Part shown: in pieces, positions 2,723-46,206 of the stretch
How positions within the stretch are numbered: the first letter of the stretch is position 1
Layout of the letters: each line of letters begins with the position of its first letter
Origin: Candidatus Saccharimonadota bacterium
Lineage (GTDB): Bacteria; Patescibacteriota; Saccharimonadia; Saccharimonadales; EFPC-124
Direction: 5' to 3'
Length of the DNA: 55,615 nucleotides
Assembly: GCA_029288315.1 (NCBI GenBank)
Contig: JARIHL010000068.1
Location: 1-55,615, forward strand
Program-made: the position numbers and the translations under genes
Notes under the pieces: generated by a model
Databases searched by the model: none
Seen by the model: the letters and a program-made list of their open reading frames with translations, nothing else
Told to the model about the DNA's origin: nothing

Positions 2723-2726
2723 GTCG

Positions 2727-3590: not shown

Positions 3591-3768
3591 AACACCCCCC
3601 TCTCGTAGCTTGTGAATAGTCGCGAGGGACGCGACACGACAATGATCACCCCAGATGAGTGAACAAAGTTAACAAAACTATACAACTATCTATGGATATT
3701 GTCTAGAGCAGCTTCTATAAAAGGTTACCGTTCATATAAGCTTCACCTTCCTAGGAGGAACGAGCAAT

Positions 3769-3787
3769 TAGCATAATCATTATGCTA
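3769..3787. promoter_or_regulatory. perfect 19-nt palindrome, candidate operator
   Basis: TAGCATAAT-C-ATTATGCTA lies 66 nt upstream of the ATG at 3853. It shares the TAGCATA core with motifs at 28866, 29361 and 50865. Confidence 0.3.
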
Positions 3788-3852
3788 GCCATAAAGGATT
3801 TGCTGCGTTATCATTAAAATTAAGAATGTAATAATGTAATTATTTAGCAAGC

Positions 3853-4476
3853 ATGGCACGACTACCAGAATTAGGAGGAGACGAGGGTACGTGGGGAATT
3901 GTTCTCAACGATTACCTTCAAGTCTCTCTCAATGCCGACGGCACCTTGAAGGCGAGCGCCACACCAGTACAATCAGTTGCCAGTAAAACCGGTGCTATTT
4001 CTTTGGTCAAGAGCGACGTTGGCCTGGGTAATGTTGATAATACTGCTGACACCAACAAACCTATCTCCACCGCCACTCAAACTGCCCTCAATGGTAAAGC
4101 GGACGTTAACACCACCGATGCGCTGGATACCCGAATTGATGCTTTAGAAACTGCAGGCATCGTCAGCTTAACTGATGGGGCTACCATTGCGACGAATGCG
4201 GCTACCGGAAAACACTTTCGCGTTACTGTGGCAGGCAATAGAACCTTAAGCACTCCTACCAATGCCACCGATGGCATGCGACGCATCTGGGAAATAACGG
4301 CCTCAGGCGCAGATAGAACTATCACCTTCACTACTGGCGTTGCTGGAAGTTTTGAGTTAACAACAAATATTACTTCGCCAATTACCATTACCAGCGGCAA
4401 GACGCACTTTATCGGTGCAATATATAACGCCTCAGGCGATCGATGGACTATATTGGCATCAAGAGCGACTTCATAA
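3853..4476 (+). CDS. phage tail-fibre/minor-tail-like protein (short paralog)
   Basis: The N-terminus MARLPELGGDEGTWGIVLNDYLQVSLNADGTLKAS is nearly identical in pattern to that of the 19185 gene. This LPxxGxDEGTWGxxLNDxL motif is one I associate with actinophage minor tail/fibre proteins. The rest is Thr/Ala/Gly-rich and beta-type. Confidence 0.5.
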   Translation: MARLPELGGDEGTWGIVLNDYLQVSLNADGTLKASATPVQSVASKTGAISLVKSDVGLGNVDNTADTNKPISTATQTALNGKADVNTTDALDTRIDALETAGIVSLTDGATIATNAATGKHFRVTVAGNRTLSTPTNATDGMRRIWEITASGADRTITFTTGVAGSFELTTNITSPITITSGKTHFIGAIYNASGDRWTILASRATS

Positions 4477-8241: not shown

Positions 8242-8865
8242 ATGAATATAGAAGCAACAACAGAACAGAACAGAAATCAATTTCATGAGTTGCATCATCC
8301 AATACTGATTATAGTAAGAGGCGTACCAGGCAGTGGTAAATCTTATTTAGCTGCCGCCTTACAAGAATCTCTCGGAAAAGAAAATGTAGTAACTCTTGAT
8401 CCTGACTCCATAGATCAAACCAGCAAAGAATATAGTGACTTTTCCAAAGCTTTAACCACAGAAGGAGTCGATACAAAGCTTCACCCCTACAGATTTTCAA
8501 GATCAAAAGCTTATGAGGCAATCGTTGCCCATAAAATTATTATCTGGAATCAACCTTTTATAGATTTTGAGGGATTTAGAAAAACAATCGATAGATTGCA
8601 AACATATGCCGCAGAACACACTACTCAGTTGCCAGCACTTGTTGTAGAGGTTGAAGTTAGTGAGGCCATCGCTAAAAAAAGAGTGATGAGCAGAAAAGAA
8701 CAGGGCGGGCACGGCCCAGCCGAAGATATTTTTGCTTACTTTATAAGCCAATATAAAAGTTTTTCAGAAAAAGGATACACCACCGTAATCGTTCAGGGTG
8801 AAGATGATGTAGCCGTATCTGTATCGGCAGTCAAGAATGCGCTCAGGAAATTACAGGAGAGATAG
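8242..8865 (+). CDS. P-loop NTPase/kinase (AAA_33 / zeta-toxin-like fold), function unknown
   Basis: Walker A GVPGSGKSYLA near the N-terminus. About 200 aa, the size of a small nucleotide/polynucleotide kinase. Confidence 0.55.
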   Translation: MNIEATTEQNRNQFHELHHPILIIVRGVPGSGKSYLAAALQESLGKENVVTLDPDSIDQTSKEYSDFSKALTTEGVDTKLHPYRFSRSKAYEAIVAHKIIIWNQPFIDFEGFRKTIDRLQTYAAEHTTQLPALVVEVEVSEAIAKKRVMSRKEQGGHGPAEDIFAYFISQYKSFSEKGYTTVIVQGEDDVAVSVSAVKNALRKLQER

Positions 8866-10888: not shown

Positions 10889-12139
10889 GTGACTACCAAA
10901 GATCGTACCTTGCAGCAGGTCATCGCGCTGATGCGCACCGACGAGGTCATGAATACTGGCACCAAGCAAAAGCTAGTCACTACCGCAGGCACGTGCAAGG
11001 TTTCTGACTTGATCAACTTTGACGGAGCGAGCCTGGCCGAGTTTTTGCTCACTACCGACCCTACCCTGACCGATACTTGCGACCTGCTGACTGTATCAGA
11101 ACGTCTATTGCAGGCATTCGGACAAGCTGCAACCACCGCAGGCACTAGTTCACCAGCTACGCAGGCAGTCGATCAGGCCATCAAAGTTCAAGTTGAATTG
11201 CCACGCAACGTTGGTGATATGTCCCTTCGTGAGCTTCTGGAGCTCTTGCGTAGCAACCCTGACCGTGCCGATGAAATCCTGGCCTACGTGCAAGTACAAC
11301 CGCAAGTGGCCAGAGCATGCCGCAAGAGCGAACGCCTCGCCATCCTTCGCGATGGCCAGCTAGATGTCGAGGCCACCCTACGGTACATTACCCATGTGGC
11401 CCGAGACTATACGCAACTAAGCGAATTGTTCGAAGGCGTTCGCCCTACGACATTCGCCAAGGCGGCGGGTACGGATTCGCGGCCCTATATTCACCCCTTT
11501 ACTGGCGAGCCAGTTGAAGGTGCAGATGAACTAGGCTTCGACTTCAGTGCACTGAATGAGGAGCTTCATAACGCCCTCCTCTGGGCGTCGGTAACGAGGC
11601 ACCCCGCCTGGCCGGCAACAATCGACCGTTTCACCATGTCGCAGGAAGTCTTCGAGACGACTTTGCCACGCAGATGGCAGCTTATCCTCGATGCCTATCG
11701 GGCAGCCAAAGCTGACAATGACGAAGTTGCAACTCGCATCAACCGCTACTATCCTAAGGAGTTGATGAGAAGTCTCGGATTGGCTGGCCCTTCCGGGAGC
11801 CGCCACCCTTTCGGTCATGAGTCAAAACGGACCCCAGAGTGGTACGAAGAACAGCTCCGAGCGATTGCCGAAGCGCCCATCAGCGTAATCGGCAGCAACG
11901 TTCACAGACGGCAATGTGTATTGACGTCTGTTTCGACCCAAGGCGGCAACATCCATCTTGGTGACGTCATTCTGCTGGGCAGAGCCGTTACCACTGGTGG
12001 AAATCTCAGCGGCAAAGCCTGCATGCCTACAGGTGTTGGTGCCCACACAGTGGGTGGCGACAACAATCTGCAGGCGTACAACTTCTCGTGGAAGAAGCTC
12101 TACGAGAAAGCTGTTGAGCTTGGCTTGATCGACGTCTGA
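10889..12139 (+). CDS. hypothetical protein (high-GC orphan, no family recognised)
   Basis: 416-aa ORF with a GTG start preceded by GGAAGGAAAGAGA. GC rises abruptly at the start codon and falls after the terminator at 12166-12199. The C-terminus has short GG-containing beta-like repeats (GGNIHLGDVILLGRAVTTGGNLSG). Confidence 0.6.
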   Translation: MTTKDRTLQQVIALMRTDEVMNTGTKQKLVTTAGTCKVSDLINFDGASLAEFLLTTDPTLTDTCDLLTVSERLLQAFGQAATTAGTSSPATQAVDQAIKVQVELPRNVGDMSLRELLELLRSNPDRADEILAYVQVQPQVARACRKSERLAILRDGQLDVEATLRYITHVARDYTQLSELFEGVRPTTFAKAAGTDSRPYIHPFTGEPVEGADELGFDFSALNEELHNALLWASVTRHPAWPATIDRFTMSQEVFETTLPRRWQLILDAYRAAKADNDEVATRINRYYPKELMRSLGLAGPSGSRHPFGHESKRTPEWYEEQLRAIAEAPISVIGSNVHRRQCVLTSVSTQGGNIHLGDVILLGRAVTTGGNLSGKACMPTGVGAHTVGGDNNLQAYNFSWKKLYEKAVELGLIDV

Positions 12140-17911: not shown

Positions 17912-19184
17912 CGAGTCTCCCTTTTGCTGGTTCAATGCGTAATTCGGCAATATTATTATAGAATGAAAAACAAAATTAGTCCAGACCTACTATACATGCC
18001 CCTGCGCAATAGCGAGGCAAAGCAACCGTTTTAAAATCCGATTACCATCATTAAGAGCCACTACTCATAGGCTGCGACATACATAAACAAAATCCGCTCA
18101 TCAACATAAGCGGATTTGGATAATGTCATGAATAAAAGGCGGAACACCATTCCTCAAAGTCTACTCATAATACATGAAAAACTTAGAAAGCTCGATTTTA
18201 TGCCGACAACCAACTTCACTAAACAATGCGCCATACATCCTCACTGTGACCACGCATTAATCTTGAACATTACAGCGAGGGCTAGTATATAGTGAATGAT
18301 GATGGAGGTACCATTTCTACCTTCTAAAGAAAGGTTTTAAAACAATGCCTAAGTTAAACGACTTCGAACAGCGAGTCCCCGGTATTCTTGATCCGCCAGG
18401 CGTCGTAAGGCCCGATCATTACCATCGAATCGATGCGGAGTTCACTCAATTCAGAATACCCGATGATCCACTTGCGCCGGCCAGTATCCATGTCAATGTC
18501 CAACGTGCTAGCGTACTTGAACCCTTGGTTATGGGCCCCGGAAAGACACACCGAGAAAGGGACCTAAACCCGATTAAGTGGCTTTCCGGGACGCTTCGAA
18601 GGTAGTGCTCTTACCGCATGGGACTATTACCAGGAACGGCAGAGTGGTGAGAATTGGCATAGTAAATATCACGACAACTTTCTCGTTGCCCAGGAGCTAT
18701 TAAAAACTACTCTCTCTTCCGCGCCGAGATAGTCGCATGGCAGAGTTCCGGGACTTCCTAACCGAGGCAACCTATATGGTCTTCGGCCGTTTACCAACCC
18801 TTTTGCCCAACGGTTCACATACGCAGTATTGGGGACCGGACCTTGCTGATGATGTAGCGATAGTCCTTTATATGTCTTCTCGCACTATCCAGGAAGGCAG
18901 ATCGTTTTCTAAATATAGGCACGCTCACCTGGGATTAGCTTGTTCGAATGACTTACAAAGGTGAAAGAACAAATAAAAAGTTTCAGCTAATATTTCCTGA
19001 ACATTTTACCTCTGTGAGAATTGAATAATGTCATACCCGAAAGCATTCGTTCGAAATGGCGCTAGTAAGCATATTCATGATTCATGATGGTTGTATGCCG
19101 TGAGCTTCTCAATAGTAAGCTTCCATTATAGCCACAAGCAATTTGATAGGTTATTATAAGATAAGTAATTATAATAAATGGTAT

Positions 19185-20090
19185 ATGGTACGACTACCGC
19201 AACCAGGAGCTGATGAAGGGACATGGGGAGAGATCCTCAATGATTTCTTGAATGTTGAGCACAATGCTGATGGCACGCTGAAAGCCAGTGGTTCGCTCGC
19301 AAGCAAAGCTAACGATTTAGCAGTGGTACATAATACTGGCAACGAAGCTATTGCTGGCATCAAAACCTTCAACGCTTCCCCGGTTATACCCACGCCAACC
19401 GCAGCCAACCAGGCTGCAAGCAAAGGGTATGTGGATGGTGCCGTCGGCGCTGCTGATGCCACAACCAGCAGTAAAGGTGTAGTCCAGTTGTCAGGTGATT
19501 TGGGTGGCGCCGGCACTACGGCCAGTGCGCCGGTAATTAGTGATGGCGCTATCACCACAGCCAAGCTCGCTAGTGGTGCGGTCACCTCAAATGAGATTGC
19601 TGACGGTACGATTATCAATACTGATATCTCCGGCTCGGCTGCTATCGCTAAATCAAAATTAGCTAGTCTGAGCATTGTTGATGCTGACATCTCAAGCATC
19701 TCTGAGAGTAAGGTTACCAATTTAACGACCGATCTAGCAGCACGAACCACCACCACAAACGGCGGTGGCGAAATTTACTTCGATGCCGGCAATTCTGGCG
19801 CGGCAAAAACGCTTGATCTGGCCAATGGTAATGTACAAAAACTCACTTTGACTGCTAGTTGCACCATTACGCTCACCAGCCCAGCTTCAGGGGCAATGCG
19901 CTCGCTTACCTTGCTAGTGTTCCAAGATGGCACCGGATCACGCACGATCACCTGGCCTGCTTCGCTAAAATGGGGTAATGCCGGAGCACCGGTGCTAACT
20001 ACTACCGCAGCCAAAATGGACATTATTTCACTCTTCACCGTTGATGGCGGTACCAATTGGTATGGCGCACTTGGCGCTAAAGGATATTAA
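19185..20090 (+). CDS. phage tail-fibre/minor-tail-like protein (long paralog)
   Basis: The ATG at 19185 gives MVRLPQPGADEGTWGEILNDFLNVEHNADGTLKAS, paralogous to the 3853 gene. The middle carries fibre-like repeats (ITTAKLASGAVTSNEIADGTIINTDISGSAAIAKSKLASLSIVDADIS). The C-terminal half aligns with the 3853 protein (TLTASCTITLTSPASGAMRSLTLLV vs FRVTVAGNRTLSTPTNATDGMRRIWEI). Confidence 0.55.
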   Translation: MVRLPQPGADEGTWGEILNDFLNVEHNADGTLKASGSLASKANDLAVVHNTGNEAIAGIKTFNASPVIPTPTAANQAASKGYVDGAVGAADATTSSKGVVQLSGDLGGAGTTASAPVISDGAITTAKLASGAVTSNEIADGTIINTDISGSAAIAKSKLASLSIVDADISSISESKVTNLTTDLAARTTTTNGGGEIYFDAGNSGAAKTLDLANGNVQKLTLTASCTITLTSPASGAMRSLTLLVFQDGTGSRTITWPASLKWGNAGAPVLTTTAAKMDIISLFTVDGGTNWYGALGAKGY

Positions 20091-20095
20091 ATTAC

Positions 20096-20782
20096 ATGAC
20101 CAGCCTCCCTTCAGCCCGGCTGACGGCATTGCGACGGCGAGAGCAGCACCCGAACTTGCTTGGTGCTTGGGGCTTTGATGAAGGCACTGGCACAATCGCC
20201 CGTGATAGCTCAGAACATAATGCATCATTGACCGTCAGCCCCAGCTTAGCATGGGTAGCCGGGCACTCCGCCGGTACTGCTATTAGCAATACCGGCGGAG
20301 GTGGCAGTTCAGCCTACACCACCTGGACCGTCAGCGTGCCCATTACCATTATGGGTTGGGCTCGGCCTACCGATTTAACACCCGGCTCTACCCGGCCGCT
20401 TTTTGGTATTTGGGATACAAGCGACTTCTCTGGCTCCACCCAATGCGCCATCTCAGCCCAACGCGGCGATTTCGGCACACCCAATGTCTTGCAAGGCAAC
20501 GTGCGTGTTAATGGTGGGCTAGTCGAGATAGCTCACACTGCTCTCACAGTTAATACATGGTATCATCTTGCGTTATCCTATGATGGCACTACCATCCGTC
20601 TTTTTCGAGATGGATCAGAGGTTGCCACAGTCTCTATTACTGGCACAATTTTTTCAGCTGCCTATTTCTTTGCGGTAGTTCCAGGTCCCACAAACGCACA
20701 GGTTGATGACGCCCGGGTGTTTAATGCCGCGCTCACTGCCGCTCAAGTCGCCGCCTTTATGGGTGATCCAGTAGCACCATAA
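20096..20782 (+). CDS. LamG (Laminin_G_3-like) domain protein
   Basis: WYHLALSYDGTTIRLFRDGSEV ... VDDARVFNAALTAAQV is the classic LamG_3 ending (compare iDevriynraLsaaei). It starts 5 nt after the fibre-like gene, the same arrangement as 3853/4477. Confidence 0.7.
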   Translation: MTSLPSARLTALRRREQHPNLLGAWGFDEGTGTIARDSSEHNASLTVSPSLAWVAGHSAGTAISNTGGGGSSAYTTWTVSVPITIMGWARPTDLTPGSTRPLFGIWDTSDFSGSTQCAISAQRGDFGTPNVLQGNVRVNGGLVEIAHTALTVNTWYHLALSYDGTTIRLFRDGSEVATVSITGTIFSAAYFFAVVPGPTNAQVDDARVFNAALTAAQVAAFMGDPVAP

Positions 20783-20885: not shown

Positions 20886-21236
20886 ACCACCTATCCTCCC
20901 AAAGACCTAGAAGAGAAAAGAGCCAAGAAAGAAACTCAGCGACCAGCCGATTTAGCACGCGTACTGGACAGGGCTAGACATTTCGCCGAAAACCTTGATC
21001 AGTTACTCATTCAACAGATTGACCCAATCAAAAAAGCTCGTCTTTTTGGTGTAATTTTTGATCGCACACCAACCTATGATGATTTGCAACTTGGAAACAC
21101 GAAAACACCCCTTTTTACAGGGGTGAATCCGTTCTTCCAAAAATCTATTATGGTGAGCCTGCGGAGCAAAAACTGGAACACTTTGCAGGCAAGCTTGGAT
21201 CGCTTGGACAGCCAGATTACAAAACTAGGATTTTAA
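20886..21236 (+). pseudogene. 5'-truncated remnant of a recombinase/integrase-like gene (copy 1) ending in a tRNA 3'-end fragment
   Basis: Open frame without a start codon: ...FAENLDQLLIQQIDPIKKARLFGVIFDRTPTYDDLQLGNTKTPLFTGVNPFFQ... Positions 21018-21156 repeat at 26765-26920, including tatggtga(g/c)cc, which in copy 2 is the 3' end of tRNA-Glu. Assignment to a recombinase is from memory of similar tRNA-overlapping C-termini and is not verified. Confidence 0.45.
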
Positions 21237-22112
21237 GGCTGTTTCACTGCCAATTTTCCAAATACCCTTCTCACGGAAGGCTGGAATAGTCTGGCGACGC
21301 GCAGCATTTAAAAGCGAGTTCGCAGACTCGCCAGCTCGCTTTGCATAGTCAGTTAGAGCGATTATCTCTTGGCCTTCCAGATACGTGATGCGCTTATGTA
21401 AAGATTCCATAAGCGAAAGCGCCAGCAAGCCATCGAGCTTTTCAGTGCCTTTACTATCTTGATAGGACTGGAAGGCTGGATAGTAGTAATCACGTTTACC
21501 CTTATTGCGAATAATCACTGGCGGATAACCATGAAGCATTAGCTGCATGTTAATAAGTACGCGACCAATGCGGCCATTGCCATCAACGAAGGGGTGGATG
21601 CGTTCAAATTCAAGATGGAAGCGCGAAATACGATCGAGGAAATAGTCATCATGTGAGCTTTCGTAGTCTGTCAAAAGATTATCAAGAAGCTGCTCTATAT
21701 GTTCCGGCGCTGGTGCGATGTGGCTACCAACCCGAACGTACTCGTGCGAAGCGCGAAATCTGCCGGCAATCTTGTCGTCAATACCACCAATGAGCATATG
21801 ATGTAAGAGTAAAATGGCTTCCTTATCAAGCTTAATGTCCGGTTTATTGCGAATATATTCTGTGACGCGTGCCAGGTTTTTCGCCTCAAATAGCTCACGT
21901 ACACTTATATTACGAGCAACTTCCAGCTCAAGCAGAATACGCTCAGTTTCTTGTAGTGTGAGTGTCGAGTTTTCAATAGCGTTTGAGTTATACACAAGCT
22001 CAGGAACTTCGACTTCGTCAATCATGACAAGCAGAGAACTTTTGCCATTCCTGAGCTGCTCGTATACTTGTTTAAGCTGCTTAATTCTAGACTTATTGTA
22101 GTAACTTATCAT
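21225..22112 (-). CDS. Fic-family protein (AMPylase type) with an N-terminal autoinhibitory motif
   Basis: Fic core HPFVDGNGRIGR (HxFx[D/E]GNGRxxR). The upstream SNAIEN matches the (S/T)xxxE(G/N) inhibitory helix motif of class II Fic proteins. Confidence 0.9.
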   Translation of the reverse strand: MISYYNKSRIKQLKQVYEQLRNGKSSLLVMIDEVEVPELVYNSNAIENSTLTLQETERILLELEVARNISVRELFEAKNLARVTEYIRNKPDIKLDKEAILLLHHMLIGGIDDKIAGRFRASHEYVRVGSHIAPAPEHIEQLLDNLLTDYESSHDDYFLDRISRFHLEFERIHPFVDGNGRIGRVLINMQLMLHGYPPVIIRNKGKRDYYYPAFQSYQDSKGTEKLDGLLALSLMESLHKRITYLEGQEIIALTDYAKRAGESANSLLNAARRQTIPAFREKGIWKIGSETALKS

Positions 22113-27074: not shown

Positions 27075-28403
27075 TCACTTTGTTGAACAACGAACAGCTC
27101 TGACGAGTGGTAATTCCGCCCAACTAGTCATGTAGGCGGGGCTGCGTTGTTCACGTTTACTGTGCCAGGCATTGCGGTCAATGTGCTCGCTTGCGTGACG
27201 CACCAGCCTCGTGTTAAATCGTTTATTAATTGCATCAACAGATCGCATAAGAGCGCTCTGACGCTCAAGACGTTGAGGGTTAGTTTCAAAGAGCGACACC
27301 TGCACAGCTTGGGCCGATTTCAGATCAACTAGTATAACTCCTCCCTTTTTATAACTAAGATCAGGATCATAAATGGCTTGAAGCCCTTTGAGTGCCGCTT
27401 CAATAATTACTCCTGTATCGGCGCTTGGCTGCATTAGACGAATTACTACTGAGGTGCTCTGATATTGCTCGAATCGTCTGGCTGGCCGTAAAAAGATCAT
27501 CACTGCCTCTGTCAATTCTTGCTGAGAACGCAGTTTAGCGCTAGCCTGAGCAGCAAAGGTGGCAATTGCCCCCTCTAATTCATAATAATTACGCATATTG
27601 TGCCCAAAAGAACGTGTACGGGCAATAGATTTTTGGGGCTCACGATCTGTGGCAAGCCTAAACCATACTTCGCCCTTGAGTTCTCTAACAGTTTGTACAC
27701 CTCTGATGCCCATCTGAGCCTGAGCCCAGGCATCACTTACCTGCGCCAGATCATAGGCGGTTGCGATACCTCTCTGGCGAAGTTTTGGAGCTGTTCGCCA
27801 GCCAATCCCCCAGATGTCGCTAACTGATAACCACTTTAGTAATCGTTCCCTATCCATCTCAGTTTGAGCATGGTAAGCGCCCTCAGTTTCAGGTAATTGC
27901 TTTGCATATTCAGCCGCAGCTTTCGCCAACGTTTTGGTTGACGCCACCCCTATTGAGACGGGGATGCCCGTCCACTGAAATATGCACTGACGTAAGGCTC
28001 GGGCCCACCCAGTGTAATCAGAAAGGCGCAGTGAGGAAATTTCTAAAAATGACTCGTCAACAGAGTAGACCTCAACATAAGGAGCTGCAGCCTGTAATAT
28101 TTTAACGACACGCTGCGAAAAGTCGCCATACAGGGGAAAGTTCCCCGAAAACAGCGTAACTTTATGAGCTTCTAATACATCTCTTACCTTAAACAGAGGT
28201 ATGCCCATTGGTACACCGAGAAGTTTGACTTCGTTGCTACGAGCTACAATACATCCGTCATTATTACTGAGTACTGCAACCGGTTTATTCCAGAGGTCAG
28301 GACGAAAAACCCGCTCACAACTAACAAAGAAGTTATTGCAGTCTACTAATGCAAACACTGCACCCCTAGAATCACACACAATCGTATGTCCATTTTGCTT
28401 CAT
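27075..28403 (-). CDS. umuC: Y-family DNA polymerase (Pol V catalytic subunit-like)
   Basis: N-terminus FALVDCNNFFVSCERVFRPDLWNKPVAVLSNNDGCIVARS and SVDESFL are hallmark UmuC/DinB motifs. 442 aa. Confidence 0.9.
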   Translation of the reverse strand: MKQNGHTIVCDSRGAVFALVDCNNFFVSCERVFRPDLWNKPVAVLSNNDGCIVARSNEVKLLGVPMGIPLFKVRDVLEAHKVTLFSGNFPLYGDFSQRVVKILQAAAPYVEVYSVDESFLEISSLRLSDYTGWARALRQCIFQWTGIPVSIGVASTKTLAKAAAEYAKQLPETEGAYHAQTEMDRERLLKWLSVSDIWGIGWRTAPKLRQRGIATAYDLAQVSDAWAQAQMGIRGVQTVRELKGEVWFRLATDREPQKSIARTRSFGHNMRNYYELEGAIATFAAQASAKLRSQQELTEAVMIFLRPARRFEQYQSTSVVIRLMQPSADTGVIIEAALKGLQAIYDPDLSYKKGGVILVDLKSAQAVQVSLFETNPQRLERQSALMRSVDAINKRFNTRLVRHASEHIDRNAWHSKREQRSPAYMTSWAELPLVRAVRCSTK

Positions 28404-28460
28404 TCATGCTTTTTAGCATTTTAGGCTAAAATCAGTAAAAAGATAGCATGACAACTCGCT

Positions 28461-28502
28461 AGGGCACGACCATAACTGCTTTTCAAGTTATGGTCGTGCC
28501 CT
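28461..28502 (-). terminator. strong hairpin between orf111 and umuC
   Basis: Perfect 17-bp stem agggcacgaccataact / agttatggtcgtgccct with an 8-nt loop, 10 nt after the stop at 28512. Confidence 0.6.
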
Positions 28503-28511
28503 CTTCTTCGA

Positions 28512-28847
28512 TTACTTAGAAAAATACCCTCCAGCCCCTTTAATCTCATTAAAAACAATATTCCAGTCCCGCGAAGCATGGGGTAGGTGCCGATCTAATA
28601 CATAGCATTGATTAGGCGTATGGCATTCCAACCGAAATCTCACTCGTATCTGATAGGCCGGAGGTTTTAAAAGGCTATTAAGATCACCGCGCAACTTTCT
28701 CTGAGCCTTCACTATTGCTCGATGAGCATCACGTGCTCTCCCTTGCCACACCACCCGGCTCATTGCAGAATCATAAGCGTTAGGGGCGGTTCTATAATAG
28801 GCGAAGACTTCCCGAACTACCCGATATTTCGGATTCTTCAAGCTCAT
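28512..28847 (-). CDS. basic hypothetical protein inserted between umuD and umuC
   Basis: 111 aa with a strong SD (AGGAGGAGCG before the ATG). No family recognised. Confidence 0.55.
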   Translation of the reverse strand: MSLKNPKYRVVREVFAYYRTAPNAYDSAMSRVVWQGRARDAHRAIVKAQRKLRGDLNSLLKPPAYQIRVRFRLECHTPNQCYVLDRHLPHASRDWNIVFNEIKGAGGYFSK

Positions 28848-28942
28848 CGCTCCTCCTGGAATGCAATAGTAGCTATGCTATCAGGTATGTATTTTTATCG
28901 TAAATCTTCTATTTGTCAATCTAATCTCATGAAATCAAAGTG

Positions 28943-29353
28943 TTAGCGATGTTTATGAATAGTAAAGGTTACTACACCCCAAACAGCCACCTCTGATACT
29001 TCATGTAGGGGAATGGGTGCATATTTGGAATGTTCAGCCATTAGCCAAGCTCGGCTGCCGTCTTTTTTAAGGCGTTTAAGTGTAAAATCACCTTCTACAG
29101 CCGCCACCACAATGTCTCCGCTCCGTGCCTCAAGTGCTTTGTCTACTACCACGATATCTCCCGGGAAAATCCCCGCCCCTGTCATCGAATCTCCTTCTAC
29201 TCGCAAATAATAAGTACTAATGGGGTGTTTCACTAAATAATCATTCAGATCAAGGGCCAAGCCTCCCGCATCTTCAGCTGGATTCGGAAAACCAGCCTTA
29301 ATAGAGGTGTTCATAAGAGATGGGCGGTGTAACGGTATATTCTTTCGAGGCAT
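28943..29353 (-). CDS. umuD: LexA/UmuD-type S24 self-cleaving peptidase
   Basis: GFPNPAEDAGG (Ala-Gly cleavage-site region), VEGDSMTGAGIFPGDIVVVD (catalytic Ser) and FTLKRLKK (catalytic Lys). There is no N-terminal HTH, so it is UmuD-like rather than LexA. Confidence 0.85.
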   Translation of the reverse strand: MPRKNIPLHRPSLMNTSIKAGFPNPAEDAGGLALDLNDYLVKHPISTYYLRVEGDSMTGAGIFPGDIVVVDKALEARSGDIVVAAVEGDFTLKRLKKDGSRAWLMAEHSKYAPIPLHEVSEVAVWGVVTFTIHKHR

Positions 29354-30910: not shown

Positions 30911-30942
30911 ATAAGCCTCATCTGTTATAAGATGAGGCTTAT
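30911..30942 (+). terminator. hairpin terminator
   Basis: 12-bp stem ataagcctcatc / gatgaggcttat with an 8-nt loop, 21 nt after the stop. Confidence 0.65.
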
Positions 30943-30947
30943 CGTTA

Positions 30948-31123
30948 TATAAGCACAACTTGCTGGCTAACAGATACGAAATCCCATAAACACTGGGGTG
31001 GCACGCGGCGGGGCGGCCCCAAAAATGTTTTTTTGTACTCAGAAAAAATTTTAGGGGCGGACCGCGTGACAGGACCCCTTCCAAAAGGATTTCGTATCTG
31101 TTAGCCAGCAAGTTGTGCTTATA
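30948..31123. repeat. 176-bp palindromic element (37-bp perfect arms, GC-rich partly palindromic core)
   Basis: tataagcacaacttgctggctaacagatacgaaatcc (30948-30984) is the exact reverse complement of 31087-31123. The core also pairs partially (ggggtggcacgcgg.. / ..ccgcgtgacaggacccc). The outer TA dinucleotides cannot be told apart from a TA target duplication. Confidence 0.85.
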
Positions 31124-31688
31124 ACCTACTATGATATAACTATTGACAATTTTTGATAATAATGATATATTTAGTCCTGTCATCGTTTTGCGGCATGTGA
31201 GGTGGAGATCTCTAGCCCAGAAGATGGGTACCATAACATATAATGTATTTGCCTGAATATCGGCTCGTTCGAGATCAGGCTTTTCTTATACAAGGTACCT
31301 TTGTCTTTAGCGGTTCCGCGAGATGAGAAGGGCACATTAACAAGTCGAATCATTACAGTTCATTTAGCTACTTAACCAGTGTAGCGATGCGTTCTTTCGA
31401 AAGGCATCGCCGCAATCCTCGCCTTCCTGAGAGGGCGCTTCGCTGCACTGCAATAACAGTAGCAGCTGGCTACCAATGGCCTTCACAGGCCGTGTTTAGT
31501 CAGTTAGATATAGCATCTGCAAGCTGCTTTAGCTTGATGTGTCGCATTTGGCGTTTTGCCGGCTTCTTTATTATATAAAGCCGTCAGCACGCCAAATGTG
31601 TACTGTCTCGCGAGCAGCGCACATCAGCCTCCGACGTGGAGGCATTTGGCACTGTCAAAAGTACCGAAGACTCCACGAAGGAGATATC

Positions 31689-32708
31689 GTGACCACCGTA
31701 ACCAACAACCCCCAGCCCACCACTGACACTCAGGCACTGCGCGACCTCGAGGCGGCTCTGGGCCGTATCGTCAGTCAGCAAACGTCTGGCATGCAGAGCA
31801 AGATCGATCAGGTCACTGCTGGACAGGCCGACCTGACCGGTGTTCGCCAGGCCCTCGAGGCTCTCGACCCGATCGTGTCCCGTCACACGGACCAGATCGG
31901 CGACCTGAACAGTCGGCTGGGTACCATCGCCAGCCTCCTCCAGACCGCTGGCACCACGCTGCTGCAGCAGGCGCAAAACCTGCCCAGCGGTAACCTGGAC
32001 TCTAGCGCGCTCACCGCGAGCCGCCAGCAGCTTCAGGAGGTCGCCCAGCAGCTTCAGGAGGTCGCGGCCACCGCCGCATCCCGCCTGGAGCGGATCGAGA
32101 CGGCGCTGGGAATGGACCCGGACACCGGGCGCTCCCGCGTTCTCGACGACCACGGTTGGCGGCTTCACCATGTCAGCAACGCGCTGGACATGGATGCAAC
32201 TGGCCAGTCTGGTCACGTCAACAAGATCAACGCTCTGCTCGGTCTCGACCGTCCCGACGGTCAGCCCGACATCATCAAAGAGCTGACCGCTGGACAGGAG
32301 GCCATTGCAACAGCAGTCGCTGGAGTCAACTCCGCGCTGCTCATGCAGCCGGATGGTCGCGCGGACCGCATTGAGCGGATCGAAAGCCGGGTCGCCGCCC
32401 TGGAGAACCAGGGAGGCGGGCTCGGTAGGTCGCTACTGATCGGCGGAGCCGTCGGTCTGGTAACGTGGCTGTTCGTCGCCGTCGTCTTTGCCACCCCTGG
32501 ATGGGTGGATATCGTGATCGGTCTTACGACCTTCCTGGCCGTGACTGGTGTTGCGATGTTCCTTGGTGGCGGTAACAGCCGTCGTCCGGCTCGGCCTCGC
32601 CACACACCGCGGCGAGTTGTCCCGACACGGACCCCAGCGCCGGCAAACCAGCGAGGTAACGGTCAGAACCCTGCCACACCGGCCAACCCGCCGGCAAACC
32701 AGGCCTGA
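31689..32708 (+). CDS. coiled-coil membrane protein with a Pro/Arg-rich tail (high-GC, actinobacterial style)
   Basis: GTG at 31689, 5 nt after GAAGGAG. About 250 aa of heptad-like coiled coil include the tandem QQLQEVAQQLQEVA. Two or three TM helices follow (LLIGGAVGLVTWLFVAVVF, IVIGLTTFLAVTGVAMFLGG), then RRPARPRHTPRRVVPTRTPAPANQ. Confidence 0.65.
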   Translation: MTTVTNNPQPTTDTQALRDLEAALGRIVSQQTSGMQSKIDQVTAGQADLTGVRQALEALDPIVSRHTDQIGDLNSRLGTIASLLQTAGTTLLQQAQNLPSGNLDSSALTASRQQLQEVAQQLQEVAATAASRLERIETALGMDPDTGRSRVLDDHGWRLHHVSNALDMDATGQSGHVNKINALLGLDRPDGQPDIIKELTAGQEAIATAVAGVNSALLMQPDGRADRIERIESRVAALENQGGGLGRSLLIGGAVGLVTWLFVAVVFATPGWVDIVIGLTTFLAVTGVAMFLGGGNSRRPARPRHTPRRVVPTRTPAPANQRGNGQNPATPANPPANQA

Positions 32709-32714
32709 GTAATT

Positions 32715-32750
32715 GGCCCAGCCAGAGTGATTTTCTACTCTGGCTGGGCC
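32715..32750 (+). terminator. intercistronic hairpin
   Basis: Perfect 14-bp stem ggcccagccagagt / actctggctgggcc between the two island genes. Confidence 0.5.
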
Positions 32751-32775
32751 ATCCCCACACTTCAAGGAGAAGTAA

Positions 32776-33816
32776 ATGCCAAACAGACGCAGACGCGCAG
32801 GCGGACTAGTGTTGGCTAGCAGTGGGGTGCTCCTGACCCTGCTGTTTGCCCTGGTCCTTCTCGGTGTCGTTCCCTCACCCATTCCGGGCGTCGGGCCGGC
32901 ACCGGCACAAGCAGCTCAGACGTGCATCAACGAGGTGCACGTTCATTACTACGATCACAACAAGAACCACCCTGGCGATTTCGGCGCACCAGTCACCACG
33001 ACCGATGCCACCGAAGCCACGGAAATCGAACGGCAAACCCGGTGTGAAGATCCATACATCACGGCCAGTCACATGGCTGAAAAAGGGTGGATCACCAATA
33101 CCGATTCGGCCATCCAGGCTGAAGCTGAACGATACCAACTTGATCGAGTCGCCTGGCAACAGTCACTCGATCGCTTAGATCGATGGGAAGAAGGAGCTAC
33201 TGCTACCATCGAAGATGCGCCGTCTTCATACTGGACGTACGCGATGCGGGCTGGTGCCGATCGTACTTCGGTGTCAGTTTACCAAACGCATGTTGCGCAT
33301 GGCTCAGGTAAGGTTCTGGTCTATCGGCGTGACGGCGTGACCGTTATGCACCGGTTAGACTGCTTGTTCCAGCCGGTCAGCGTCCAGCAACTTCCCGAGC
33401 AAGTACCTCCAATCCGAGAGGTGCCCAAGGGACAAGGTGGCGAACAGCCTCCGGGCTCACCGCCGCCGAGCAGTTCGGTTCCGCCGCCACCCGGTACGGG
33501 TGACTGCAAGCCCAACTGCCCGACCACGACCGTCCCTCCGCCGCCGAGTGATGATTGTCATGACCGTGGAGACTGCAAGTCGTCCAATCCGGACGACTAT
33601 GTCTACCCTGATGGCAAACAGAAGGTGGATGCACCTGGCGCAGCCGATCCGGCTCCGCTAGTAGTGGAAACCCAACGGCATGAGCCGGAGCCTGCGCCAG
33701 TCATCACACCTGGTAACACAACCGACGACACTCCTGTCGACACCGGTAGTGACACCAACCACGGAACCGTTCCAACGGATCCGGGGCAAGGATGCACCAA
33801 CCCCGACTTCTGCTGA
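32776..33816 (+). CDS. secreted Cys-containing protein with a Pro-rich C-terminal half (high-GC)
   Basis: RRRR-containing signal peptide MPNRRRRAGGLVLASSGVLLTLLFALVLLGVV ... AQA. GGAGAAG lies 4 nt upstream of the ATG. It has PPPSSSVPPPPGTGDCKPNCPTTTVPPPPSDDC linkers. No family recognised. Confidence 0.65.
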   Translation: MPNRRRRAGGLVLASSGVLLTLLFALVLLGVVPSPIPGVGPAPAQAAQTCINEVHVHYYDHNKNHPGDFGAPVTTTDATEATEIERQTRCEDPYITASHMAEKGWITNTDSAIQAEAERYQLDRVAWQQSLDRLDRWEEGATATIEDAPSSYWTYAMRAGADRTSVSVYQTHVAHGSGKVLVYRRDGVTVMHRLDCLFQPVSVQQLPEQVPPIREVPKGQGGEQPPGSPPPSSSVPPPPGTGDCKPNCPTTTVPPPPSDDCHDRGDCKSSNPDDYVYPDGKQKVDAPGAADPAPLVVETQRHEPEPAPVITPGNTTDDTPVDTGSDTNHGTVPTDPGQGCTNPDFC

Positions 33817-33867
33817 TCCAGCAGAAGTCGGGCGGGGCCTGCCGGGCAATCATGCCCGGCAGGCCCC
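33803..33867 (+). terminator. two tandem GC-rich hairpins ending the island operon
   Basis: The 13-bp stem ccgacttctgctg / cagcagaagtcgg spans the stop codon. It is followed by the 14-bp stem ggggcctgccgggc / gcccggcaggcccc. Confidence 0.65.
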
Positions 33868-34081
33868 AGAGGCCCTATGCTATATCTATCACTCCGAGAG
33901 GGTGTACTAATTGTCGAGCCTTACAGCTCCAAGACGTACACTCCTCTCGAGAAAAACCTTATACATGATGTGACCTGTAATGATTCGACTTAAAGTGCCT
34001 GAGGAACGTTAACAATTTGGACCAAAGAGATTTGCAATTTAATCAAGTTTACTATTTAATTACTAATACTAAGGAGACTAT

Positions 34082-36016
34082 ATGAAGAAGCTACTTGAAA
34101 AGCTTCGTCGCGCACCCAAGCAGGTGGCGTTGACAGCACTTGCTGTTGCCGCCATTGTGACCCCCGCCATTGCCATGGCTTGGGGCCCAGATCGTGCAAC
34201 CTTTACGATCGCTAACCCTGCTCCGTACGTGACGTTTAACTCGATCACCGACAACCCTGCACACGGTGACGAACGCAATTTTATGCAGGTAAAGCCGACT
34301 GGCGCTCCTAATTCTGCTTACAGCGAGAAAGTGAACGTCGAAGCTGGCAAAGAGTATGACGTTTTTGTCTACTATCACAACAACGCAAAAACAAGCCTTA
34401 ACGCCAGCGGTGTTGGTATTGCTCAAGGGGCGAAAGTCCGTGCGCAAATTCCTGCCGTTGTCGAAGGTGATAAAAAGGCCGTGAGTTATATTGAAGCTGA
34501 CAACGCCAATCCTAAAAGTGTTTGGGACGATGTTACTTTTGCCAGCGCAACCAAACTGAACCTTGACTATGTACCTGGCTCAGCCACCATTCACAGCAAG
34601 GGTAAAGTAAACGGTAAAACACTACCTGACAGTATTGTCGCTGGTGGTGCAGCCCTTGGTTATGACGACCTTAACGGTGTATTGCCTGGCTGTGAGCAGT
34701 TTTCTGGCTACGTGGTTTTCCGCGTCAAAGCCACTGCTGAAAAGCCCGACTTCACCATCAAAAAGGAAGTCCGCGAAGCTGATAAAAACGCCACTTGGGC
34801 CGAGAACGTTAAAGTCGCTCCCGGTACCAAGGTTAATTACCGTCTTACCTTTACCAACACTGGTAAAACCGATCTCAAGAATGTTCAATTGAAAGATCAA
34901 CTGCCTGCTGGTATGTCAATCGTATCTGGCAGCGTAAAGATCATGAATGCTTCACATCCAAATGGCGCGCCAATTACAAATGGTGACCAGCTGGTTGCTA
35001 ATGGTGTCAACATTGGTTCTTACACCCCTGGTTCTAACGCGCTTGTCGTGTTTGACGCAACAGTTGCCGCCGAGAAAGATTTGCCCTGTGGTAAGAAAAC
35101 TTTCCGTAACGTCGCCAGCGCTAAGCCAGAAGGCCAGAATCCAAAAGAGGACGATGCCAATGTTGAAACTGAAAAGAAGTGTGAAGAGACAAAACAGCCA
35201 ATCTATAAGTGTACTGGCTTAAATGTCGAGACAATCTCGCCTACCCAGTTTAAATTTACTGGTGAAAAGCAGGTTGAGAACGCTGAATTCGTGAAATTCA
35301 TCTACGTTATCCGTGATGAAGCTGGCAAAGAAATTGCCCGCAACGAGCAAGGTGGTTTTACCATCGACAAAGTTGGTAAGTACACTGCTGAAGCAATCTT
35401 GGTGGTTAAAGTTGACGGCCAAGAGAAGCAAGCTACTGCTGCTGAATGTAAGAAACCTTTCGAAGTGAAAGAACAACCCAAGCAGCCAGTATACCGCTGT
35501 GACTCATTAACCGTTAAACCAGTTCGCATTGATGGCAAAGACAGCCGTGACCAGTTTGAGTTTACGGTTCAGCCGTACTCTGAAGGTAACGTAAAAGTCA
35601 AAGAATACAGCTTTGACTACGATGACGGTCAAACTCAGATCGTCGGTGCCGACCAAAAAACAGTGAAGCATACCTATCAGAAAGCTGGTGACTACACTGC
35701 CAAGGTAGCAATTACCTTCGAAGTTGATAGCAAAACCGTCCCTGGTGTTACCGGTGACAAATGTAAGGTTAGCCTGAATGTTAAACCTGTACCTCCTGCA
35801 GAATGTAAGCCCGGCATTCCGATGAATGACGCGCGCTGTGAGGAAAAGCCAGGTCAACCAGGCCAGCCTGAACAACCAAAAACACCTGAGTCATTGCCTT
35901 CAACTGGCCCAGAAGCCATCCTCGGCAGTCTCTTTGGTTCAAGCGCGCTTGGTCTTGGTGTGCACACGTGGCTGAACAGCCGCCGTGCCCTCCGCAGCGT
36001 CGTAAACAAGAAGTAA
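34082..36016 (+). CDS. LPSTG-anchored surface protein (DUF11/Cna-B-like domain plus PKD/Ig-like repeats)
   Basis: TAAGGAG upstream and a signal peptide. TFTNTGKTDLKNVQLKDQLPAGMSIVSGSVKI is DUF11-type. Two Y(K/R)C-led repeats are paralogous to those of the 29508 gene (for example FDYDDGQTQ...HTYQKAGDYTAKV vs FGDGQKV...HTYQKTGDFTAKV). The C-terminus is SLPSTGP plus a helix plus NSRRALR. Confidence 0.85.
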   Translation: MKKLLEKLRRAPKQVALTALAVAAIVTPAIAMAWGPDRATFTIANPAPYVTFNSITDNPAHGDERNFMQVKPTGAPNSAYSEKVNVEAGKEYDVFVYYHNNAKTSLNASGVGIAQGAKVRAQIPAVVEGDKKAVSYIEADNANPKSVWDDVTFASATKLNLDYVPGSATIHSKGKVNGKTLPDSIVAGGAALGYDDLNGVLPGCEQFSGYVVFRVKATAEKPDFTIKKEVREADKNATWAENVKVAPGTKVNYRLTFTNTGKTDLKNVQLKDQLPAGMSIVSGSVKIMNASHPNGAPITNGDQLVANGVNIGSYTPGSNALVVFDATVAAEKDLPCGKKTFRNVASAKPEGQNPKEDDANVETEKKCEETKQPIYKCTGLNVETISPTQFKFTGEKQVENAEFVKFIYVIRDEAGKEIARNEQGGFTIDKVGKYTAEAILVVKVDGQEKQATAAECKKPFEVKEQPKQPVYRCDSLTVKPVRIDGKDSRDQFEFTVQPYSEGNVKVKEYSFDYDDGQTQIVGADQKTVKHTYQKAGDYTAKVAITFEVDSKTVPGVTGDKCKVSLNVKPVPPAECKPGIPMNDARCEEKPGQPGQPEQPKTPESLPSTGPEAILGSLFGSSALGLGVHTWLNSRRALRSVVNKK

Positions 36017-39957: not shown

Positions 39958-40329
39958 ATGCCAGTCAAGATCGCCATTATTGAAGATGATCCGACGATTT
40001 CCCAGATGTATCGGATGAAGTTTGAGGCCGAGGGCTTTGACGTACAGACAGCAAGTAATGGCAGGCTAGGCGTCGCGTTGGTGGAAAAGATGCGACCAGA
40101 TGTTTTGCTTCTTGACCTGCGCATGCCAGAAATGGATGGCGCTGAAGCATTGGCAGAAATCCGCAAAGAAAGCTGGGGCAAACATATACCTGTACTTGTT
40201 TTAACGAATGTTGGTGAAGAAGAAGCACCCAAAACACTCAAATCGCTGGATGTCTATGACTATATTGTGAAGGCTGATCTCACACCGCGCCAAGTGGTTG
40301 AGAAAGTTAAAGAAGCCCTGACGGCTTAG
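39958..40329 (+). CDS. single-domain response regulator (receiver only)
   Basis: IAIIEDD, LLLDLRMPEMDG (phospho-acceptor Asp), VLVLTN, and the conserved-Lys region KADL. 123 aa with no output domain. It is divergent from the acyltransferase-kinase operon. Confidence 0.9.
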   Translation: MPVKIAIIEDDPTISQMYRMKFEAEGFDVQTASNGRLGVALVEKMRPDVLLLDLRMPEMDGAEALAEIRKESWGKHIPVLVLTNVGEEEAPKTLKSLDVYDYIVKADLTPRQVVEKVKEALTA

Positions 40330-45282: not shown

Positions 45283-46206
45283 ATGACCAACCTCGGCCTA
45301 TGGGCCCCATTCATTGACGAGCAGGAAATGCGAAGCTGGTACGAATTGCCGACCAGCTTGCAGACTGAATGTCAAATTTACCAACCTGACGGGCATGAAC
45401 TTGACCCATTCTCTGAATCGGCTTTCGCCCGCTTGCATCGTGAAGCCGTGGCATATGCAGACCAATCAGTGGCCTACGCCAACCCTCCTTTCCATAACCA
45501 TGAGCATTTTCGGCAAGTCGAAGAGAACGGCTTGGCGGCAGCTGACGCCTACGCCAATGGTAATCGGCAGAAGTTGCCTGAGGCAGTGCGGCAAGCCCTG
45601 AGTCTTGCCCTGTACATGCACGATGCGCACCACTGTGCCAGTACTTTTCGCGTTGACGCTCGACACGGGTTGTATCGTCCTGAGCTTGGTGTGAATGTTT
45701 CACTCGAATGGGTGACGACAGGGGCAGCCAACGAATTCATGACCGCCAGAGGACTTTGCTTACCGGCACGGTTGTTCCAGGTTGGGATTATTTGGGCTTC
45801 AACGTATGGCGGCCAGACCCCTAAAGGTCGCGAACTGGGTATTCCAAACCCCCAACCACAAACCGTATGGGGCTGTATCACGCGAGCAGCCGATGTCTGT
45901 CCGCAGAAAGATTTTACTTCTTGGCTGCGAAAAGGCATCGCGGTGAACTACGGCGAGATTCCCGCTGCCAAAGCTGCTGATACTTGGCATGGTTTCTTTG
46001 ATCAGCTGAACAAATTTGTTGACTACGTCGAACACTGCATGAACAGGCTTGACACCACGGCGCAGGCACCGATTACCGTCACACTTGGATGGCGGAAACG
46101 GATCATTACCTTGCGCCAAGGACTGGCACAGCTCAAAGCTGGAGATCCGCAGCTGCGAACTTTCATTACTCAAGAGCTGCGTCAATACAACGCTACTCTC
46201 GGTTAA
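45283..46206 (+). CDS. HD-motif metal-dependent phosphohydrolase-like protein (moderately GC-enriched)
   Basis: FHNHEHFRQV ... LALYMHDAHH gives an H...HD arrangement. 307 aa with no closer family recognised. Confidence 0.45.
   Translation: MTNLGLWAPFIDEQEMRSWYELPTSLQTECQIYQPDGHELDPFSESAFARLHREAVAYADQSVAYANPPFHNHEHFRQVEENGLAAADAYANGNRQKLPEAVRQALSLALYMHDAHHCASTFRVDARHGLYRPELGVNVSLEWVTTGAANEFMTARGLCLPARLFQVGIIWASTYGGQTPKGRELGIPNPQPQTVWGCITRAADVCPQKDFTSWLRKGIAVNYGEIPAAKAADTWHGFFDQLNKFVDYVEHCMNRLDTTAQAPITVTLGWRKRIITLRQGLAQLKAGDPQLRTFITQELRQYNATLG

Follow-up and report, generated by a model that had tools for sequence, protein, structure and literature searches.

The stems that flank the 16S and 23S rRNA in bacterial rRNA operons are formed by long-range pairing and are substrates of RNase III. 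Ends of a transcript also pair in the hok mRNA of the hok/sok system of plasmid R1, a molecule of about 400 nt that encodes a small toxin and is under antisense RNA control; pairing of its 5′ tac element with its 3′ fbi element governs stability and translatability. Flavivirus genomes carry several complementary 5′-3′ cyclisation elements, and their closure serves replication. We know of no bacterial protein-coding operon in which pairing of the mRNA ends around the whole operon is accompanied by covariation across genera, as is the case for rRNA. Here we describe a candidate for such a system in a 55,615-nt stretch of a Candidatus Saccharimonadota genome (positions 1 to 55,615 of contig JARIHL010000068.1, assembly GCA_029288315.1; the whole stretch is referred to as the window): a two-gene cassette, predicted to encode envelope proteins, that is bracketed by an inverted repeat between positions 31330 and 34000. 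On balance, we think that the repeats probably constitute a conserved multi-helix RNA pairing between the 5′ leader and the 3′ untranslated region (UTR) of a hypervariable Saccharibacteria envelope operon that is held at high GC content, and that this pairing would serve RNase III processing or mRNA stability.

The predicted structure of the locus resembles the rRNA processing stems in that complements lying 1.5-3 kb apart form a duplex of at least 20 bp, enclose a loop and co-vary; the arm-to-arm span across the loci studied here is 1.9-2.7 kb. It differs from these stems in that the enclosed RNA is a two-gene mRNA without rRNA match, that at least two nested helices are interleaved with local hairpins, and that cleavage by RNase III is here only proposed. 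Because the enclosed region consists of two protein-coding genes, we regard the structure as one that may work like an rRNA stem, not as a member of that class. As in the hok fold-back, the 5′ and 3′ ends of the mRNA are predicted to pair and to close the molecule, but the mRNA is about 2.8 kb long and encodes two envelope proteins, and neither a toxin signature nor one of an antisense RNA was seen. The closure of a long coding RNA by several separate, nested 5′-3′ elements recalls flavivirus cyclisation. This is an analogy only, without evolutionary relation, the flavivirus molecule being the genome of a eukaryotic RNA virus.

A preliminary description of this DNA, made from its letters alone, had reported a perfect 17-mer that recurs in inverted orientation on the far side of the two genes. 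Our analysis confirmed this repeat, AAGTCGAATCATTACAG, at 31342-31358 (+) and 33975-33991 (-). These are its only two copies in the window, even when up to three mismatches are allowed, and two matches were obtained in 0 of 100 shuffles. The inverted repeat extends to 21 nt at 95% identity (one mismatch; 31342-31362 and 33971-33991). The outward extension that had also been reported, ggcac at 31331-31335 and gtgcc at 33995-33999, is present, and both parts join the predicted helix 1 duplex of 29 pairs (31330-31363 with 33970-34000). Less remained of the proposed weak similarity between the flanks tgagaag and tgaggaa: both exist, but they match at five of seven positions, and the closest relative, locus L001, has gcgcgaag at the left position. 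The contrast between AT-rich repeats and GC-rich genes was borne out, with 33% GC in the 21-mer arm and 62% in the cassette. By inspection, the arm has no internal dyad, no direct-repeat symmetry and no dyad-symmetric core.

Related loci were available from independent assemblies (ENA, JGI, NCBI and Logan), with L009/L010, L018/L019 and L020/L021 as duplicate locus pairs. An inverted copy of the arm follows gene 2 in 10 of the 11 loci with enough sequence (window, L002, L004, L005, L008, L009, L011, L012, L018 and L020), and the comparative evidence as a whole rests on these 10 loci. L001, a 1852-nt contig, ends before the expected right-arm position, as do L003, L007 and L013. In the other loci helix 1 comprises 24-30 bp, and in L020/L021 the repeat carries a 3-nt bulge. 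The arms of L012 have a largely different 24-nt sequence, yet match each other at 92%; those of L018 are also largely different and still match each other, with A7C and the ATATAA core in both. Smaller paired changes were found in L009 (G3A, A7G and C15T in both arms) and L005 (G6A in both arms). When the two arms of the 10 loci were concatenated and a 25-pair helix was counted, 90.8% of the cells paired, compared with 78.4% in column shuffles, none of which (0/500) reached the observed value. Sliding the partner by 1-3 columns reduced pairing to 27-39%. Changes on both sides occurred in 16 of the 25 pairs, and the covariation score was 0.432 vs 0.190. The left arm itself is nearly invariant, with 0-1 change in 8 loci. 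All 12 readable loci show the order promoter, leader segment S1, left arm, leader segment S2, genes, in a single orientation. Taken alone, the covariation of the arms is compatible with pairing as RNA, with recognition of both arms by one protein, or with gene conversion.

Pairing as RNA on the sense strand is favoured by an excess of G·U pairs, by a second nested helix, by arms that are left unpaired locally, and by the placement of the arms within one transcript. Transition differences between the arms yield G·U on the sense strand in 21 cases vs A·C in 6 (binomial p = 0.006; the count ignores shared ancestry), and an out-of-register stretch accounts for two or three of the L020 G·U pairs. 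The proportion of pairing cells given above applies to the sense strand and falls to 84.8% on the antisense strand, and hairpin energy is better on the sense strand in six of the eight loci tested (for instance, -28.1 vs -16.3 in L004 and -37.4 vs -27.7 in L011). Inside helix 1, a second leader-to-3′ UTR helix is predicted. In the window, a match as good as this helix 2 (Table 1) arose in 2% of shuffles. At the corresponding leader block L005 has TAGATAGAGTTTTTG, with an exact 15-nt complement in its own 3′ UTR, helix 2 thus being changed on both sides compared with the window. In four loci (L002, L004, L008 and L011), the best-conserved block of the leader, TGTGACTAC, has its partner TAGTCACA at a constant 63-82 nt ahead of the right arm; the second helix of L004 shows a T-to-A / A-to-T double change. 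With the arms excluded, the best leader-to-3′ UTR helix was better than that of a reversed-sequence control in nine of the 10 loci (Wilcoxon p = 0.006), and the Fisher-combined shuffle p-value for the second helix was 2e-6. In the local minimum-energy folds of leader and 3′ UTR, neither arm is paired, and local pairing of the left arm with the conserved S2 block instead would give weak duplexes of -5 to -9 kcal/mol. The cofold holds helices 1 and 2 at -344.6 kcal/mol, compared with -308.3 kcal/mol for the parts folded apart, a gain of 36 kcal/mol. The left arm always lies downstream of a promoter, and the hairpins that follow gene 2 in repeat-bearing loci lack T-runs, whereas L015, which has no repeats, has a canonical terminator. 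Because of the promoter upstream of the left arm and the missing T-runs after gene 2, the arms probably lie inside a single transcript.

From these observations the following course of events may be proposed. One transcript would start near 31178 and comprise S1, the left arm, S2, both genes, the 3′ hairpins and the right arm, and it may run on into the downstream DUF11 gene. The hairpin and T-run of S1 (31251-31287) resemble an attenuator. Helix 1 (31330-31363 with 33970-34000, about 29 bp) and the nested helix 2 would join leader and 3′ UTR into one composite RNA domain, so that the 2.1-kb coding region becomes a loop, in the manner of 16S and 23S rRNA between their flanking sequences. RNase III would find a natural substrate in a duplex of 22-29 bp, and a cut would free the gene 1-gene 2 mRNA, with paired ends, from S1 on one side and the downstream gene on the other. 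Alternatively, closure might act without cleavage by shielding the mRNA from exonucleases. That the arms are on one RNA, that they pair in vivo and that the pairing has an effect is what we infer from sequence comparison.

Several points weigh against this interpretation. The start and end of the transcript, and read-through past the three 3′ hairpins, are likewise something we infer, and the covariation could also come from one protein binding both arms, or from gene conversion. The G·U pairs at arm positions 3 and 17 may go back to a few old events, and the asymmetry is due in part to AT-biased drift of the right arm. The left arm, with its 0-1 change in 8 loci, is more conserved than pairing requires, so it probably has a second, sequence-specific partner. 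L015 (1931-3775) keeps both genes at high GC (0.59-0.61, compared with 0.40-0.43 for its downstream flanking genes) without the long leader or the inverted repeat, its gene 2 being followed by a canonical hairpin and T-run terminator; the structure is therefore dispensable. For single loci, the shuffle p-values of helix 2 are modest (0.005-0.6). Finally, no rnc gene is visible in the 55.6-kb window, the rest of the genome lying outside it.

Table 1. Coordinates of the cassette, its leader and 3′ UTR, and the downstream gene (positions of the window)
Feature	Position	Strand	Description
Putative sigma-70-type promoter	31143-31171	+	TTGACA, 17 nt, TATATT, upstream TG (extended -10); 11/12 consensus match
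Leader segment S1	31178-31329	+	Outside the long-range stem; Shine-Dalgarno (SD)-like GAGGTGGAGATC at 31199-31210; terminator-like hairpin 31251-31280; T-run 31281-31287
Helix 1, 5′ strand (left inverted repeat)	31330-31363	+	Core 31342-31362, outer GGGCAC extension
Leader segment S2	31364-31688	+	Inside the stem; highly structured; hairpins 31384-31410 and 31545-31598; ribosome-binding site GGAG at 31680-31683
Helix 2, 5′ strand, TAGATATAGCAT	31505-31516	+	Perfect 12-nt complement of 33877-33888; in the cofold minimum-energy structure
Gene 1 (start codon GTG)	31689-32708	+	339 aa; long helical (coiled-coil-like) N-terminus, two transmembrane (TM) helices (~residues 246-292), Pro/Arg/Asn-rich tail; 65% GC
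Intergenic hairpin	32714-32751	+	Perfect 15-bp; between gene 1 and gene 2
Gene 2	32776-33816	+	346 aa; signal anchor, orphan alpha/beta domain (~residues 50-205) with conserved Cys, Pro/Thr/Cys-rich tail; 59% GC
Three 3′ UTR hairpins	33802-33832, 33834-33867, ~33895-33950	+	None followed by a T-run; 3′ UTR z = -9.4
Helix 2, 3′ strand, ATGCTATATCTA	33877-33888	+	83 nt upstream of the right arm
Helix 1, 3′ strand (right inverted repeat)	33970-34000	+	Core 33971-33991, GTGCC extension
DUF11/PKD surface protein	34082-36016	+	LPSTG anchor; Pfam DUF11 and PKD; constant downstream neighbour of the cassette

The near-invariance of the left arm across otherwise divergent leaders, beyond the needs of pairing, would be explained if the arms were a pair of DNA operators, both bound by one sequence-specific protein such as a regulator tied to the neighbouring two-component system. 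Such a protein could roadblock the leader and control the promoter of the downstream surface-protein gene, perhaps by looping. We consider this unlikely. Covariation of the arms is expected if a single protein recognizes both, a histidine kinase constantly accompanies the cassette, and a short motif recurs at both ends: TTAAC directly before the left arm (31337-31341) and T(T/C)AACAAT at 15-45 nt past the right arm (34010-34018 in the window), in the same orientation at both ends and also in L002, L008, L011 and L020. This motif could be a protein-binding site. However, the neighbouring response regulator (39958-40329) is a bare receiver domain without DNA-binding output, and the arm sequence lacks the internal dyad or direct-repeat symmetry looked for by inspection. 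Operators would predict neither the predominance of G·U over A·C, nor a helix 2 that changes on both sides, nor complementarity over 26-30 bp.

It is likewise improbable that the arms are recombination anchors, by which the arms, the leader and the downstream gene would edge a replaceable island swapped between Saccharibacteria lineages, although such exchange would also explain the GC content and the unrelated contents of the cassettes. The similarity of flanks and cargo is uncorrelated (Spearman 0.135, p = 0.43; flank scores 0.18-0.54, gene 2 scores 0.02-0.27): L002 and L011 have the closest DUF11 neighbours (0.52), while their gene 2 proteins are not detectably related (0.025). The second gene of L002 (reverse-strand 3355-4455) and that of L008 (1846-2835) show no detectable homology to the window's gene 2 family, whereas the flanking genes are homologous; the second gene there has either been replaced by a non-orthologous one or diverged to an extreme degree. 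All loci have a coding GC of 57-66%, at a flank GC of 0.39-0.56. The concept agrees with the replacement flexible genomic islands of cell-surface genes (PMC4033161). Such islands have been described within species and are usually large glycosylation clusters. With them the cassette shares a fixed locus, genes of the same kind of surface function that are divergent or unrelated, a deviant composition and conserved neighbours; it differs in having only two genes, in being compared between genera, and in the conserved RNA framework that surrounds it. Homologous replacement, however, needs conserved flanks and not inverted repeats, and S2, which the arms enclose, groups into the same families as the part beyond them. 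Identities between pairs of loci at the nucleotide level were too noisy to tell whether S1 and S2 follow the cargo or the flanks. L015 has a high GC content without arms, no recombinase is present, and helix 2 and the G·U bias would be left unexplained. Replacement could hold for the evolution of the cargo without explaining the repeats.

An invertible DNA segment, in which a recombinase would flip 2.6 kb and uncouple the operon from a fixed promoter (phase variation), we regard as quite improbable. The arrangement does recall the inversion switches Hin/hix, FimB/FimE-fimS and the Bacteroides invertons, in which short inverted repeats bracket a segment tied to the expression of surface proteins: here, co-varying inverted repeats of ~21-30 bp surround surface-protein genes, with the promoter outside. 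Yet the 12 readable loci all have the same orientation relative to promoter and S1 in their assemblies, and no domain of a recombinase, integrase or invertase turned up in the scanned ORFs of the 55.6-kb window or in the genes called at related loci. In contrast to known switches, the arms show no dyad-symmetric core by inspection, and whole genes instead of a promoter lie between them. Inversion also gives no account of helix 2 and the G·U bias.

The preliminary description had interpreted the cassette as foreign, possibly actinobacterial, cargo in a palindromic or MITE-like non-autonomous vehicle (MITE, miniature inverted-repeat transposable element), which our results make very unlikely. 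Like MITEs and non-autonomous elements derived from insertion sequences with passenger genes, the cassette has terminal-looking inverted repeats and, as had been noted, no transposase or recombinase inside, and its deviant GC content would also fit this view; domains of transposases, recombinases, integrases and invertases were absent from all scanned open reading frames (ORFs) of at least ~110 aa in the window. Unlike MITEs, it is a single-copy locus in a fixed syntenic position, without a dispersed family. The collections scanned for the exact 21-mer gave three records among 185,579 species genomes, all named Saccharibacteria or Saccharimonadales, and two among 241 million metagenome records. 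All five are homologous loci, so that the dispersed copies of the ends anticipated for a mobile element were not found, and each locus has one repeat pair. The upstream non-coding DNA of the window and L001 is ~85-87% identical for ~290 nt past the left repeat, through the promoter, and the left repeat is therefore not an insertion boundary. No convincing target-site duplication was detected: TGAGAAG and TGAGGAA agree at 5/7 positions, and L001 has GCGCGAAG on the left. Neither protein had homologues in phage and plasmid collections (tblastn), and every gene 2 relative on a readable contig is in the same kind of locus with a Saccharibacteria-type neighbourhood. A degenerate arm pattern matched two IMG/VR contigs, in both cases inside an AT-rich phage tail-fibre-like gene; since no other feature is shared, we take these matches to be due to chance.

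The pair thus behaves as a conserved backbone operon. A DUF11 homologue follows immediately after gene 2 in eight further distinct loci (ten records: L002, L008, L009/10, L011, L012, L015, L018/19 and L020/21; tblastn), and a homologue of the histidine kinase is close by in seven further distinct loci (nine records; tblastn). The exact gene order of the window is reproduced in L009/L010 and L020/L021, and relatives keep the repeats together with the genes, apart from L015. An assembly chimera or a chance repeat, suggested by the abrupt GC change inside a metagenomic contig, is practically ruled out because the independent assemblies share the same architecture, and shuffling, as stated above, did not reproduce the repeat.

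The two genes of the cassette correspond to their earlier characterization as a high-GC pair encoding a coiled-coil protein with C-terminal TM helices and a Pro/Arg tail and a signal-bearing, Cys- and Pro-rich protein. The estimate of ~65% GC by eye holds for gene 1 (GC at third codon positions, GC3, 0.74), but not for gene 2 (59%; GC3 0.59) or for the cassette, in which GC is 62%, compared with 46.5% for the window. The other 43 ORFs of the window have a mean GC of 46.6% ± 4.2 (GC3 0.436 ± 0.073). Gene 1 has a single close relative, P0003, at 53% identity, encoded on L001; the word-index search of 5.8 billion proteins by which it was found otherwise returned only the window's own proteins. 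For gene 2, an exhaustive HMMER search of 1.84 billion representatives gave 27 distant relatives besides the protein itself, at 27-37% identity, and low-complexity words overwhelmed a profile search made with this family. Neither protein has a significant match in Pfam, PHROGs or NCBIfam, and a PDB sequence search gave nothing credible for either; sub-threshold matches to HTH_30, holin-X and MCE were rejected as probably compositional. The predicted model of gene 2 has a domain with a predicted local distance difference test (pLDDT) score >90, for which Foldseek found no fold match at E <= 0.001 in PDB and BFVD, and the gene 1 model (pLDDT 44.6) is too poor to use. The architecture of gene 1 (helical N-terminus, TM hairpin, low-complexity tail) is kept in all loci, with variants such as that of L003, which has the TM segments in its second gene, while its sequence is 22-25% identical or unalignable between subfamilies. 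The coiled-coil part of gene 1 contains a perfect 21-nt tandem duplication, CCAGCAGCTTCAGGAGGTCGC, whose two copies at 32024-32065 double the seven residues QQLQEVA.

The cassette proteins diverge far faster than the products of the flanking genes. Coding GC is 57-66% in nine loci despite a flank GC of 39-56%, and it is also high in the repeat-less L015. High GC is therefore a property of the operon across Saccharibacteria, independent of the repeats, and not a sign of recent import. The high value may stem from selection acting on mRNA composition, from GC-biased gene conversion at a hot spot of recombination, or from cassettes being replaced repeatedly. As a GC anomaly without detectable foreign origin, the operon offers a clean case for weighing selection on mRNA composition against GC-biased gene conversion. 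On the sequence evidence, the cassette is a chromosomal, vertically located, Saccharibacteria-specific envelope module of a membrane-anchored helical protein and a secreted Cys/Pro-rich protein. The earlier designation as an envelope or cell-surface module of unknown function accordingly holds, with LPXTG, PKD and DUF11 surface proteins as neighbours.

Saccharibacteria are tiny obligate epibionts that live on other bacteria, and the factors by which they recognize and attach to their hosts are largely unknown. The locus is a natural candidate for a host or phage interface because of its fixed position, its orphan envelope proteins, its sortase-anchored and sensor-kinase neighbours, its fast evolution and a GC content ~6-19 points above that of the genome. 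It is possible, and we suggest this tentatively, that Saccharibacteria possess an undescribed cis-acting RNA architecture, consisting of a ~500-nt leader and a 3′ UTR joined by at least two nested long-range helices, in which the closed operon gates the processing, storage or translation of the mRNA of a hypervariable, ~62% GC envelope module that probably faces the host bacterium. Full-text literature searches turned up no description of the locus, the leader or the repeat in Saccharibacteria. If this architecture exists, it would provide the first case of a bacterial mRNA whose operon is held in a loop in rRNA style. Pairing of the operon ends, if real, would add a new mode of control over the fate of mRNA, together with another large structured leader RNA. 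The locus would then be a prime candidate for epibiont host-interface genes and a concrete target for cultivable Saccharibacteria systems.

The putative promoter, from which the transcription start near 31178 is predicted, lies ~170 nt upstream of the left arm and thus outside the repeat. It is conserved in L001, and an equivalent TTGACA...TAnAAT is found ~170 nt upstream of the left arm in L002-L005, L007, L008 and L011. A GGTGGGA-type block followed by a hairpin and a T-run recurs in the leaders of L001-L005, L007, L008 and L011. This S1 layout (SD-like GAGGTGGAGATC or GGTGGGA, hairpin, T-run) looks like a riboswitch or attenuator. By inspection, the short ORF after the SD-like block is not conserved among the window, L001 and L005, which gives no indication of a leader peptide in S1, and an alignment of nine S1 sequences was too poor for a consensus structure (4 pairs predicted). 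The whole leader (~510 nt) folds at -209.5 kcal/mol (z = -7.6 vs shuffles) and is ~87% identical to that of L001, whose gene 1 protein shares only the 53% identity given above; leader and 3′ UTR are generally better conserved than the proteins. The two leader hairpins listed in the preliminary description, at 31384-31410 and ~31544-31600, are real, the second spanning 31545-31598. So are its three GC-rich hairpins (32714-32751, 33802-33832 and 33834-33867), to which a further one at ~33895-33950 is added. At the place of the intergenic hairpin, L001 has a different sequence with complementarity kept, and GC-rich hairpins without U-tract also follow gene 2 in other repeat-bearing loci. Searches of Rfam 15 gave no match for leader or 3′ UTR in the window (E <= 10) or in eight related loci (E <= 0.5) other than weak hits to eukaryotic microRNAs and long non-coding RNAs, all far below the gathering scores and attributable to chance.

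Between the cassette promoter and the terminator that ends the upstream PKD surface gene (30911-30942) there is a perfect 37-bp inverted repeat with a 102-nt GC-rich spacer (30948-30984 / 31087-31123), of which the window has these two copies only. In L001 the right arm is preserved in part, and a related GCTTGTGC / GCACAAGC-like block is found upstream of the promoter in several other loci. This repeat may be an upstream regulatory element.

The remainder of the window is an ordinary Saccharibacteria chromosome, with genes for FolD, prephenate dehydratase, aminotransferases, ABC transporters, a DEAD-box helicase and two-component systems and a umuDC-like pair. The latter lies 2 kb upstream of the cassette (27075-29353, -) and comprises a umuC/dinB-like Y-family polymerase (442 aa), a 111-aa ORF and a umuD/LexA-like S24 peptidase (136 aa). 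A link between these genes and the cassette was rejected, as they are not beside it in other loci. Three further ORFs without Pfam domains, at 1799-2872 (-), 10889-12139 (+) and 45283-46206 (+), have a moderately raised GC content (0.54-0.56; GC3 0.54-0.62) and may be further members of a GC-elevated orphan gene class in this genome. A zeta-toxin-like kinase (8242-8865, +) and a Fic/DOC-family protein (21225-22112, -) may be toxin or defence modules. Two adjacent ORFs at 19143-20782 (+), with phage-receptor-binding-like domains (BppL_N, DUF5907 repeat) and a concanavalin/laminin-G-like lectin domain, may encode adhesins.

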